NCBI GenBank assembly: GCA_044868145.1
Contig: JBIOWE010000004.1
Location: 73,395 to 137,394 of the forward strand
Direction of reading: 5' to 3'
DNA: 64,000 bases
DNA from: Patescibacteria group bacterium
GTDB lineage: Bacteria; Patescibacteriota; Patescibacteriia; UBA10025; JBIOWE01
Positions 3,929-56,976 of the stretch are shown here, piece after piece. Numbering within the stretch: the first letter of the stretch is position 1; every line of letters starts with the position of its first letter. The translations under genes were made by a program, and so were the position numbers. The notes below the pieces were generated by a model. It did no database searches and was not told the origin of the DNA. It saw only the letters and a program-made list of their open reading frames with translations.

Positions 3929-4038
3929 AATGAAAAATGAAAAATAAAAAATAAAATATCAAAATGACAGTGTAAAATGTAAAAATTTTTGATCTTTTAT
4001 TTGTCATTTTAATCTTTGATGTTTGATTTTTGAATTTT

Positions 4039-5082
4039 CTAGCGTTGGAAAACGGCAAAGTACACTTCGAAAAAAAGAAGTGTGAACCATCCGAGCATGA
4101 GCACGAACCACAATATAATCTGGATGCGTTCGGCACGCGTTTCTGCGGTAACGCTAAAATTCTCGGCTGTGGTCGTGTAGATGTCTTCGAGGCTGTCGAG
4201 CTTTTCACGAATACTTTGTGTCCAATTTTCGAGATGGAACTTCTTTCCGATCAACTCATACAGTTTTGCGGCGTACCAATCGCCAATGAGCTTAATGTTT
4301 CGCTCAACGTCTTCAAAGTCAATAATGGATTGGAGACGCAGCGCCATAAGTTCACGCATGGTCGCGCGAATTTCGTTCGTCTTCACCTTCGGCTTTGTAC
4401 TGACCAATTTATGCGTACGGATCAATCGTTGGTCGAGTTGCCAATCAAGGCTGCGTAACCGCAACAAGTGAGCGTTCGCCACCTGTAAAAGGTCTACCCC
4501 GTCGTCCCACTTGCCTTCGGGATCAAACAGAAACGCACCGTCCCAATCGACGATAATCAAATCGTCCTGCGCGTACTGAATGCGCGAGGCCAAAGTATTC
4601 TCCACCTCGTTCTTGTCGAGCGCAATTGGTTCGCTCTTTAAAAGGGACGCCATCGCGTTCTTGTAACCAAAGAATTGCTCCGGACTTCCAGCGTACCCCG
4701 ATACGCAAAACAAGGTATATTCTTCCACGAATCGCTTATCAACCTGTTGTTTATCCAAAATTTTATAGCCGACTTCAATGAGATCGTCTTTTAGCTGGAT
4801 ATTATCTATGGAAAAAATGTCCTGTACCTGCGCGATTACCTCAACGACAATAGTGTCCGGCATATACGCTTTCACGTTGATCCGAACCGAGAGCTGACCG
4901 ACCTTCTGCGTTTGCTCCTTGAGAACCTTTCGCGGAGGGAGCGTTTCAGTATACGAAGGTGAGCTACGAACATGCTTCACTTCTTCTGCCCCGCGCTTCG
5001 GCACAGCAGATTTGCTCTGAGCAACAACAAAGGCGATGATCTGACCTGGGATTTTTTTTGTTTGAGTGTTATTCATAGTCAT
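4039..5082 (-). CDS. Hypothetical protein with a C-terminal transmembrane helix; possibly DUF155/RMD1-like (uncertain)
   Basis: 347-aa ORF. Its hydrophobic C terminus is ILWFVLMLGWFTLLFF. The start codon lies 1 nt from the 15-nt tRNA-Ser 3' end repeat. No confident homology recognised. Confidence 0.4.
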   Translation of the reverse strand: MTMNNTQTKKIPGQIIAFVVAQSKSAVPKRGAEEVKHVRSSPSYTETLPPRKVLKEQTQKVGQLSVRINVKAYMPDTIVVEVIAQVQDIFSIDNIQLKDDLIEVGYKILDKQQVDKRFVEEYTLFCVSGYAGSPEQFFGYKNAMASLLKSEPIALDKNEVENTLASRIQYAQDDLIIVDWDGAFLFDPEGKWDDGVDLLQVANAHLLRLRSLDWQLDQRLIRTHKLVSTKPKVKTNEIRATMRELMALRLQSIIDFEDVERNIKLIGDWYAAKLYELIGKKFHLENWTQSIREKLDSLEDIYTTTAENFSVTAETRAERIQIILWFVLMLGWFTLLFFEVYFAVFQR

Positions 5083-5083
5083 A

Positions 5084-5098
5084 AATCGGAGGCGAGAG
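5084..5098. repeat. Direct repeat AATCGGAGGCGAGAG, identical to the 3' end of tRNA-Ser plus 3 trailer nt (second copy 5233..5247)
   Basis: Perfect 15/15 identity read directly from the sequence. The copies are 149 bp apart, with three GC-rich hairpins between them. Confidence 0.8.
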
Positions 5099-5235
5099 TC
5101 CCGCCACGAGGGCGGGATTTCGGTCGCCTAATGGCGACCTCAAGATTCTTCACTTTTTAAGAATTCGGAGAGGGTGGGATTTTCCGCCAAAGGCGGATCC
5201 GCCGTAGGCGGAGAACCCTGTCCTTAACCTGGAAT

Positions 5236-5322
5236 CGGAGGCGAGAGGATTCGAACCTCTGATACCCTTGCAGGCATACGTCCTTTCCAGGGACGCCCAT
5301 TCAACCGCTCTGGCACGCCTCC
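5236..5322 (-). tRNA. tRNA-Ser (anticodon GGA), long variable arm
   Basis: Acceptor GGAGGCG/CGCCUCC. Anticodon stem CGUCC/GGACG with loop CUGGAAA. Long variable arm. T arm AGAGG-UUCGAAU-CCUCU. Discriminator G. Confidence 0.8.
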
Positions 5323-5426
5323 CAAACACGTCAAAAAACCGCCAAAGTCAGTATACCATAGCACTTTTTTACCAAAAAGAAAAGCCCTCACGGAATCATG
5401 TTCCATGAAGGCTTAGAATCTCTGAC

Positions 5427-5735
5427 TTATGATGCGGTAACCGCCTTTGGCGAGGGGGATGTCGCACACACCTGACGCATGACCGAAAAAATCTGATCTG
5501 GCTTTCCTACAAGCTTGATATACCTACTGCTTTCTCCCTGAAGTGACGGTCGATCTTTCTCGGATAGTCCGCTGCACGCATATTGCACGTGCTCAAATGT
5601 TTTTCCATCCGGAATCGCACAAACAAGCTGGCGATGGTCTTCCTGCCCATTGGGCTGGAAAGAAAATGCGGTCACTCCACCTTGAGAAAGAATCTCCTTC
5701 ATCTCTGCGTAATAGCGATCTGTACTTCCATTCAT
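5427..5735 (-). CDS. Hypothetical small protein (102 aa)
   Basis: ORF with ribosome-binding site GGAGGT 5 nt upstream of the ATG. No recognisable family. Confidence 0.35.
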   Translation of the reverse strand: MNGSTDRYYAEMKEILSQGGVTAFSFQPNGQEDHRQLVCAIPDGKTFEHVQYACSGLSEKDRPSLQGESSRYIKLVGKPDQIFSVMRQVCATSPSPKAVTAS

Positions 5736-22970: not shown

Positions 22971-23257
22971 TTAATAAGGTTTAACAAGGAGGTTCGACTC
23001 TTTACCCCGCAGAGCGAACGAAGTGAGCTTATGCGGGGCCGCCTTCGGCACCATTGATAAATCTAGAGTTTGAGAGGTCCGCCTGTCTCGCCGGAGCCTG
23101 GCGAAGGCGAGAAGTCCTCTTCCCGGCATTAAAACGAGGCAGAATGTGGACACGTTTATACAAATAAGTTGTATGGGCAATAATCGCGCTGCTCGCGCTT
23201 GCCAGCCAGAGGAAAAAATCAGTACCATAATTTAATAAACAAGAAAGAACTGACAAC

Positions 23258-56572: not shown

Positions 56573-56699
56573 ATTACAAATAGACCTAGCGATTGCGCAA
56601 TGACGCAATCTTTTTCCCTGCTGTTTTGCGGTGCTTCTTGAGAGCAACTTTTTGCTTTTTGTTCATGGTTTTCTTGATAGACTTATTACTCATCAATGC

Positions 56700-56858
56700 C
56701 CTCGACAGGAATCGAATCCCGTACAAATTCGCTCCGCTCATTTTACGGGACATGCCTGAATCCCAGGCTTCGTCCCGCCACGTAGTACGTGGCTCCGCAA
56801 CAAACCTTTGCCCCTGCCGAGAGTCGAACTCGGATTTCCAGCTTCGCCCCGCCACCTA
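56700..56858 (-). other. Two tandem degenerate tRNA-like 3' fragments (T arm plus acceptor 3' strand, each ending GGGCA), each preceded by GTGGCGGGRCGAAGC
   Basis: On the minus strand, 56786..56858 reads GGTGGCGGGGCGAAGC...CCGAG-TTCGACT-CTCGG-CAGGGGCA and 56700..56785 reads CGTGGCGGGACGAAGCC...ACGGGATTCGATTCCTGT-CGAGGGCA. No matching 5' acceptor strands are present. Confidence 0.35.
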
Positions 56859-56930
56859 TGCCCTCGGCGGGAATTGAACCCACATCTCAAGCTTCGGAGG
56901 CTTGCGCTCTATCCGTTGAACTACGAGGGC
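56859..56930 (-). tRNA. tRNA-Arg (anticodon CCG)
   Basis: Acceptor GCCCUCG/CGAGGGC. D stem GUUC/GAGC. Anticodon stem CAAGC/GCUUG with loop CUCCGAA. T arm GUGGG-UUCAAUU-CCCGC. Discriminator A. The gene sits inside a perfect 21-bp inverted repeat (56840..56860 / 56924..56944). Confidence 0.75.
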
Positions 56931-56976
56931 ATAGGTGGCGGGGTCTCCGTTCGCTACGCTCACTCCGAGAGGCGTG

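Follow-up and report, generated by a model that had tools for sequence, protein, structure and literature searches.

A hairpin-rich segment between direct repeats of a tRNA-Ser(GGA) 3' end in a Patescibacteria genome: a possible small insert

The tRNA-Ser(GGA) locus

Patescibacteria (CPR) are very small bacteria that have been seen largely through metagenomes. We analysed a 64-kb stretch of one such genome, called the window throughout, and focused on the segment at positions 5084-5247. The encoded DnaG assigns the window to the Patescibacteria; its best relative, among 185,579 species genomes, is 51% identical. All neighbours of the segment are housekeeping genes on the minus strand. Their order is tRNA-Asn, rpoD, dnaG, a 347-aa gene, the repeat region with tRNA-Ser, a small ORF, a gene for a PEP-utilising enzyme, and groEL. 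This neighbourhood has a uniform GC content of about 0.5, and the window also carries uvrABC, recA, ftsK and the genes for RNase J and metK. The key features are as follows.

4039-5082, minus strand: downstream gene, PF27233 (MJ0711_N), an ORF of 347 aa
5084-5098, minus strand: distal repeat copy, adjoining the start of the downstream gene
5233-5247, minus strand: proximal repeat copy, from reading of the sequence and repeat search
5236-5322, minus strand: tRNA-Ser(GGA), a type II tRNA found by ARAGORN and by Rfam (RF00005, 54.2 bits)
5382-5414, minus strand: terminator-like hairpin of the upstream gene, preceding tRNA-Ser

The repeat is AATCGGAGGCGAGAG on the plus strand, or CTCTCGCCTCCGATT in the tRNA sense. 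Exact plus-strand matches occur at two places only in the window, 5084-5098 and 5233-5247. The original prediction had named the same two positions; its caveat that the 15-mer might prove to be a generic repeat does not hold. With a tolerance of two mismatches, chance predicts 0.15 matches in the window; 3 were observed, a number reached in 0 of 100 shuffles. Similarly, local alignment of the tRNA-Ser 3' part with its own trailer scored above all 500 shuffles. Together, these shuffles rule out a chance origin of the repeat.

Since the tRNA gene occupies 5236-5322, positions 5236-5247 are its last 12 nt and 5233-5235 are 3 nt of trailer. Hence, the predicted make-up of the proximal copy agrees with the ARAGORN and Rfam placements. 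The copy contains 4 nt of the T-stem 3' strand, the acceptor 3' strand, the discriminator G, and the 3 trailer nt. Note that the gene does not encode CCA, and that the exact repeat begins in the T stem rather than in the T loop. The spacer between copies is 5099-5232, which is 134 bp, or 149 bp with one repeat copy included.

The downstream gene has a first ATG 1 nt from the distal copy and a second one 7 nt from it. The 345-aa length of the database copy of the protein (P0001) implies that translation starts at the second. Hence, the predicted distance of 1 nt applies to the first ATG and is 7 nt if the second is used. The best homologues of the protein are 59-60% identical and are encoded upstream of dnaG-rpoD-tRNA-Asn. 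In these cases, one or two small genes (MazG, NUDIX) separate the MJ0711_N homologue from dnaG, and there is no tRNA-Ser in front. In other CPR genomes, tRNA-Ser(GGA) lies directly before dnaG, and the content of the interval between the two varies. We conclude, from these gene orders, that the MJ0711_N gene is not repeat-bracketed cargo, and that the downstream flank of tRNA-Ser varies between genomes. The collections searched held no orthologous locus from a close relative (nearest DnaG 51%, nearest MJ0711_N protein 60%).

The terminator-like hairpin at 5382-5414 implies that the stretch of tRNA, trailer and gene begins a new transcript. In the DNA that separates tRNA-Ser from the MJ0711_N gene we found neither a terminator-like nor a promoter-like site, so the tRNA, its trailer and the gene are probably co-transcribed. 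The intervening DNA probably acts both as the tRNA 3' trailer and as a structured 5' leader for the MJ0711_N-family gene. A separate feature, at 3932-4039, fills the gap between the MJ0711_N gene and dnaG. This is an imperfect palindrome, about 108 nt long and very rich in AT, with 58-nt arms that are 74% complementary and several promoter-like matches on both strands.

Anatomy of the 134-bp spacer

The spacer had been described as holding only three hairpins. We count four perfect GC-rich hairpins and one that is AT-rich. These, and the larger units to which they belong, are listed below.

5087-5141, minus strand: unit 2, a remnant of the resident tRNA that resembles a T arm and holds two inserted hairpins, from reading of the sequence
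5099-5117: GC-rich hairpin, tcccgcc/ggcggga
5122-5139: GC-rich hairpin, ggtcgcc/ggcgacc
about 5144-5165: AT-rich hairpin, ATTCTT/AAGAAT, between units 1 and 2, from sequence and fold
5166-5223, minus strand: unit 1, a 3'-half fragment of a different type of tRNA-Ser, from fold and alignment
5183-5212, no strand assigned: double hairpin in the T-loop position of unit 1, made of two abutting GC-rich hairpins (5183-5197 and 5198-5212), each TCCGCC-NNN-GGCGGA

The trailer fold is more stable than that of shuffled sequences, with z of -3.8 on the tRNA strand and -5.1 on the plus strand. GC content of the spacer is about 0.50, the same as its flanks. No comparable hairpin cluster occurs elsewhere in the 64-kb window. 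A search for further copies of the whole 134-bp cassette, proposed with the original prediction, likewise found none there.

Read in the tRNA sense, the spacer is not a random stack of hairpins. Rather, it resolves into two decayed copies of a tRNA-Ser 3' half, with T loops interrupted by GC-rich palindromes. Unit 1 reads GGACAGGGTTC-[TCCGCCTACGGCGGA][TCCGCCTTTGGCGGA]-AAATCCCACCCTCTCCG, a T-arm-like frame followed by an acceptor 3' strand. In the predicted fold, its ends pair (GGAcAGGGT/ACCCTcTCC) and close a three-way junction. The acceptor strand is of the CCCTCTCCG type, which matches the tRNA-Ser(GGA) 3' end of many CPR relatives; that of the resident tRNA-Ser(GGA) is CGCCTCC, unlike unit 1. 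In addition, unit 1 can be aligned with tRNA-Ser trailers of two other CPR loci, L005 and L012, where the double hairpin has the same T-loop place. Hairpin 2 of the unit shows compensatory changes across these three lineages. Unit 2 reads GAGGT[cgccattaggcgac]CGAAATCC[cgccctcgtggcggga]CTCTCGCCTCCG. The two units are unlike, and only unit 2 is closed by the end of the resident tRNA. A gapped alignment of tRNA and trailer scored 32, compared to 19.6 +/- 3.3 for shuffles. Terminal inverted repeats are absent; the insert ends, CCAGGTTAAGG... and ...GTGGCGGGA, are not mutually inverted. Inverted ends are present in some relatives (L118, L121 and L184).

Rfam 15 returned nothing but tRNA, both for the window at the gathering threshold and, at an E-value threshold, for 4900-5500, 250-900 and eight related loci. 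The best non-tRNA match, to sX4, reached 21.9 bits against a threshold of 70 and was driven by the tRNA part. We also rejected a split or intron-containing tRNA, with the distal copy as the true 3' end. This is because the proximal copy already completes the tRNA, and because distal ends at L005 and L184 cannot pair with the resident 5' strand. A scaffold with a 3' guide, by analogy with TnpB, CAST or bridge RNAs, is speculation, with neither a supporting protein nor a conserved scaffold.

The resident tRNA-Ser(GGA) combines a GGAGGCG acceptor with a GTGCCAGAGCGGTTGAATGGG D arm, a backbone shared with CPR tRNA-Ser(TGA) and tRNA-Ser(CGA). In many relatives, the GGA isoacceptor has a CGCATAG-type D arm. 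This sharing suggests backbone exchange among tRNA-Ser isoacceptors.

Judging by its sequence, the double hairpin at 5183-5212 belongs to a palindrome family dispersed over CPR genomes. Across 1.57 Mb of CPR loci there are 7 non-redundant double hairpins and 65 single hairpins of the TCCGCC type. Near-identical double hairpins are intergenic in L057, L049 and L011, and only 2 viral contigs carry one. Four copies of the double-hairpin type, two of them outside the strict pattern, lie in frame inside long ORFs. These are at L110:4891-4926, L148:6849-6900, L161:2686-2716 and L012:4894-4925. The host frames are 311 codons long (L110), two related frames of 700-800 codons (L148 and L161), and a lysine-rich protein (L012). 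In-frame double hairpins add peptides of the SAxGGSAxGG type, as Rickettsia palindromic elements do. One further double hairpin, in L182, adjoins a tRNA-Ser 5' fragment. The fragment (L182:1752-1823) corresponds to about the first 36 nt of the tRNA-Ser(tga) of the same locus and stops at the anticodon loop. It abuts the double hairpin about 280 nt upstream of the complete tRNA-Ser(tga). Hence, 5' fragments of tRNA genes occur too.

tRNA trailers in the window and in other CPR genomes

Two further tRNA genes of the window have trailers of related design.

22971-23132, plus strand: tRNA-Leu(CAG) trailer, with a T-arm copy, GGAGGTTCGACTCT, at 22988-23001
56696-56857, minus strand: tRNA-Arg(CCG) trailer, ending in a 20/24 copy of T arm and acceptor strand at 56696-56719

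The tRNA-Arg copy is significant against shuffles (p<0.002) and lies about 3 nt before an ATG. A strand from the trailer interior pairs with it over 12 bp (z -2.95). The tRNA-Leu trailer is a weaker case (p=0.006). Here, the T-arm copy begins 18 nt past the end of the gene; the 3'-end copy, at 23116-23132, is degenerate (CCTCTTCCCGGCATTAA). The tRNA-Asn trailer is structured, with no significant copy of the tRNA end. Note that AGGTT followed by GGTTC(G) is common to the Asn, Leu and Ser trailers; the Arg trailer has AGGTTT and GAGTTCGACTCTC, in reversed order.

Several other observations concern these trailers. An exact 12-mer, TTTACCCCGCAG, follows the GGTTCG motif in both the tRNA-Asn and tRNA-Leu trailers (715-726 and 23001-23012). 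Related motifs (GGTTCGTTTA... and TTTACCC...GGG-AATCC) are found in distant CPR trailers, at L109, L118, L133, L141 and L075; an example of the trailer-family pattern is GGTTCG-TTTACCCC...GGGG-AATCC. Downstream of tRNA-Asn, at about 540-620 on the minus strand, a block of GGGTCGCGGCAACAAGT-[hairpin]-GGCCGCGACGGGCATCACGAT is common to the tRNA-Asn trailer of L006. This block has no Rfam match and may be a conserved small RNA or a further trailer family. A 35-codon ORF on the minus strand (56589-56696) begins a few nt past the distal tRNA-Arg end copy. It encodes a very basic peptide, MSNKSIKKTMNKKQKVALKKHRKTAGKKIASLRNR, and has no visible Shine-Dalgarno sequence. Finally, leader and trailer are complementary at tRNA-Asn (746-762 with 820-836) and tRNA-Arg (about 56846-56859 with 56931-56943). 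The pairing runs on through the discriminator base and makes the acceptor stem 10-13 bp longer. Of 275 tRNAs in CPR loci, 23 have five or more Watson-Crick pairs of this kind (up to 16); a shifted control gave 0. Such tRNAs mostly begin ...GC[tRNA]GC..., and many also carry trailer inserts. The extended stem may be a double-strand processing signal.

We then surveyed 233 non-redundant tRNAs in fetched CPR loci, counting copies outside other annotated tRNAs. A copy of the tRNA's own last 12 nt, matching at 11 or 12 positions, lies 73-207 nt downstream of 18 (about 8%, or about 1 in 12). No such copy lies upstream of any of the 233, and none has a reverse-complement copy. The exact repeats are 13-20 nt long. 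Their left edge is in the T loop ((G)AATCC...) in six of seven cases; their right edge is 1-5 nt past the discriminator base, or, all told, 0-5 nt past the tRNA end. A whole-locus search for exact 14-mers found three repeats more than 200 nt away, at 374, 4985 and 10859 nt. The first is at tRNA-Pro of L023, and the other two are in loci with more than one tRNA-Ser gene. No repeat-bracketed island with an integrase was identified among the 233 tRNAs. The start codon of the next gene is close to the distal copy, 1-7 nt away at tRNA-Ser of the window and about 3 nt away at tRNA-Arg. Spacing between tRNA-Ser and the next gene is equally tight in relatives that have no insert.

Two related loci are informative. 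In L141, the trailers of three different tRNA-Ser genes resemble one another: each is about 110 nt long, has motifs in common with the others and ends in a copy of the end of its own tRNA. L133, which is 80-91% identical to L141, has the tRNA-Ser(tga) trailer and does not have the inserts at tRNA-Ser(cga) and tRNA-Ser(gct). Hence, filled and empty sites can be seen at analogous loci; the window locus itself is without a close relative for such a comparison. The shared tRNA-Ser(tga) trailer is 89% identical. Its last 60 nt or so have two differences, both in hairpin loops, which points to selection on structure. No recombinase or integrase was found in the L141 stretch missing from L133. The tRNA-Arg(gcg)-tRNA-Ser(cga) pair is inverted between the two (L141:7367-7533 and L133:5046-5233), with the trailer insert in L141 only. 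Elsewhere, a true tandem repeat was found in L012; its period is 162 nt, and it takes in the tRNA end together with no fewer than 56 nt of trailer. The pseudo-ends of L005 and L184 are of a different tRNA-Ser type from the resident gene. Our search of the full-text literature, of incomplete coverage and so weak evidence of novelty, found no description of such trailers in CPR.

Origin of the insert and comparison with known systems

The repeat geometry matches the signature of site-specific recombination at tRNA and tmRNA genes. This part of the original prediction, a duplication of attL/attR type around inserted DNA with 12 of the 15 nt inside the tRNA, stands. We tentatively favour, at a little under even probability, a small non-autonomous insert at the tRNA-Ser(GGA) 3' end. 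Insertion would have duplicated a stretch that begins in the T arm and reaches 3 nt beyond the tRNA. The gene would have kept an intact end, and the second copy, which would be the original, would now be directly before the next gene. We suppose the insert to have been small from the outset and unable to move alone, resembling a cis-mobilizable element or MITE, and to have been put in place by a recombinase acting in trans. Its first part would be an internal scar, the 3' half of a different type of tRNA-Ser, with the dispersed CPR double hairpin in the T loop. The AT-rich hairpin, and the resident-tRNA T-arm remnant carrying two further hairpins, would make up the rest. The scar may have been brought from an earlier tRNA-Ser site, by accretion of att-flanked elements.

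Several results favour such an insertion. The repeat is exact and non-random, and the same design recurs in the window, clearly at tRNA-Arg and less so at tRNA-Leu. In CPR, copies are downstream only, with edges confined to the T loop, in most cases, and to the few nt past the discriminator base. Each of the three L141 trailers ends in the end of its own tRNA, and two of these trailers vary in presence between L141 and L133. Start-codon spacing is tight with or without an insert. Unit 1 can be aligned to trailers in L005 and L012, and its double hairpin is found elsewhere in CPR. Other results fit less well. No recombinase was found in the window or in the L141-specific stretch, no empty site was seen for the tRNA-Ser(GGA) of the window, and the 134 bp, without terminal inverted repeats, are single-copy in the window. 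Moreover, the window's exact repeat begins in the T stem. The L141 trailers share motifs, yet their end repeats are tRNA-specific. This is awkward for a single element with one attP, and is better explained by true target duplication or by selection.

A mobile element may not be needed. Slippage or unequal exchange could produce a tandem tRNA copy that then suffers loss, shortening and palindrome invasion, with the 15-mer as the part still intact. We consider such a decayed local duplication unlikely here, although it is well supported at some other loci. L075, L011, L004 and L008 keep remnants of the D, anticodon and T arms in tRNA order, with hairpins in former loops; for these, tandem duplication is simpler than insertion. 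The true tandem of L012, and the tRNA-Leu T-arm copy so near its gene, also fit. Conversely, decay does not predict the non-random repeat edges (T loop; at most 5 nt past the tRNA end). Nor does it account for unit 1, and the pseudo-ends of L005 and L184, being of another tRNA-Ser type than the resident, or for interior motifs shared by L141 trailers behind different tRNAs.

Possibly, though doubtfully, the window element is one member of an undescribed CPR class of small tRNA-trailer elements, of about 75-210 nt. These would either be inserted at the T loop or 3' end, with a 13-20-nt duplication, by some mechanism acting in trans, or be kept as mimics of the T arm and acceptor. In the second case, they could have a role in processing tRNA-mRNA precursors, for example by setting the 5' end of the downstream mRNA. 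A second palindrome family would nest in the pseudo-tRNA loops and, in frame, in protein genes.

A little less probable still, in our view, is a functional RNA module. Here, the trailer would be a co-transcribed T-arm/acceptor mimic, selected for precursor processing or control of the downstream gene, with its end kept by selection or gene conversion. The trailer shared by L141 and L133 is as conserved as coding DNA, with changes mostly in hairpin loops and the first hairpin; this conservation points to structural selection. Also consistent are the compensatory changes in hairpin 2 of unit 1, in three lineages, the small and compact genomes, and the stretch from tRNA-Ser to the next gene, free of terminator-like and promoter-like sites. 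Furthermore, in a subset of trailers the distal copy is paired with a strand from the interior: z is between -1.9 and -3.0 at the window tRNA-Arg, L141 gct, L012, L007 and L133. At tRNA-Ser of the window, however, shuffled sequences pair as well as the real one (z -0.84), and over 20 cases z averages only -0.7. Hence, conservation and some pairing back a selected RNA in general, but not for the window's own tRNA-Ser trailer. In addition, trailer sequences are very different between loci and have no Rfam match, most tRNAs have no such trailer, and L133 does without two. Note that insertion, tandem decay and a selected RNA overlap, and are not fully exclusive.

The first option of the original prediction, the relic of a large integrated island or prophage cut by deletion to 134 bp, is very improbable: tRNA 3'-end direct repeats are the classical island boundary (PMC9897764, PMC3146451) and the tRNA-Ser(GGA)-dnaG interval differs in content among relatives, but no integrase turned up among the scanned ORFs of the window and there is no compositional anomaly, the MJ0711_N gene is outside the repeats and, in relatives, upstream of dnaG with no tRNA-Ser ahead, and the insert, rather than being unrelated leftover DNA, consists of pieces of tRNA 3' halves plus a dispersed palindrome. 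A decaying island predicts broad sizes, so the narrow range of spacings (73-207 nt, with no island-sized case among 233 tRNAs) argues against random decay. The tRNA 3' 20-mer is absent from viral contigs, on which ground a phage attP was rejected too. As for tyrosine and serine integrases, which the prediction suggested looking for, a Pfam scan of 36 ORFs of the 64-kb window, each of 150 aa or more, gave no hit to any integrase family; the scan left out the two largest such ORFs (1292 and 1129 aa) and three of about 150-190 aa. The findings proposed as a refutation turned out half one way and half the other. Spacers in relatives are indeed similar, with no larger insert, but the 15-mer is not generic. 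The second option, a miniature non-autonomous element, fits better.

Repeats of tRNA 3' ends are routinely taken as island boundaries, and this can mislead in Patescibacteria. About 8% of the sampled CPR tRNA genes have such a repeat around an insert of about 75-210 nt, with no recombinase nearby. If mobile, the inserts point to a recombination activity of very small genomes. If selected RNAs, they are relevant to the processing of tRNA-mRNA co-transcripts in organisms with a reduced RNase set. In either case, tRNA fragments and in-frame palindromes can mislead tRNA and gene annotation of metagenome-assembled CPR genomes.

Among known systems, islands at tRNA and tmRNA genes are an obvious comparison. 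Dehalococcoides ssrA islands use a serine recombinase and have a 20-bp repeat (PMC3146451). Mycobacteriophage Ms6 uses an attB in the T loop of tRNA-Ala (PMC1762012). As here, such systems have a direct repeat of the gene 3' end and leave the gene intact. The repeats in relatives of our locus likewise run from the T loop to the gene end or just past it, and scars can occur in series. In contrast, the window repeat begins in the T stem and encloses 134 bp rather than kilobases, with no cargo genes and no compositional difference. Hence, of the hallmarks of island attL/attR, the locus has the 3'-end repeat with an intact gene, but neither an adjacent integrase nor island-sized foreign DNA.

Cis-mobilizable elements (CIMEs) are att-flanked and have no integrase of their own (PMC3146451). 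The window insert, similarly, has att-like flanks, no recombination genes inside, a non-autonomous character and an internal att-like scar, as from accretion. CIMEs also occur in Streptococcus thermophilus. Known examples are kilobases long with an identified partner element, whereas no partner or recombinase was seen in the 64-kb window and mobility of our insert is putative. Unlike a MITE, the insert lacks terminal inverted repeats; within the 64-kb window it is single-copy. Casposons and CRISPR spacer integration produce long target duplications, and some casposons are at tRNA 3' ends. The resemblance, a 13-20-nt duplication of a tRNA 3' end around inserted DNA, is by analogy only; the window has neither terminal inverted repeats nor a nearby Cas1.

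For the palindromes, the parallels are different. Rickettsia palindromic elements are small palindromic repeats. So are REP and REPIN sequences (PMC3116915). Like these, the 5183-5212 type is short, GC-rich, palindromic and dispersed, and found both in intergenic DNA and in frame. However, its unit is only 15 nt, arranged in adjacent pairs, and copy number is low (7 pairs in 1.57 Mb).

Lastly, the E. coli tyrT repeats are 178-bp units, each with the last 19 nt of tRNA-Tyr, and are the source of rtT RNA. They share with our trailers a copy of the tRNA 3' end 100-200 nt downstream, probably co-transcribed, and L012 has true tandem units. Unlike in the tyrT type, units 1 and 2 of the window are dissimilar, one derives from another tRNA type, and they do not form the head-to-tail array seen in L012. 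Furthermore, many tRNA species, across a phylum, are affected.
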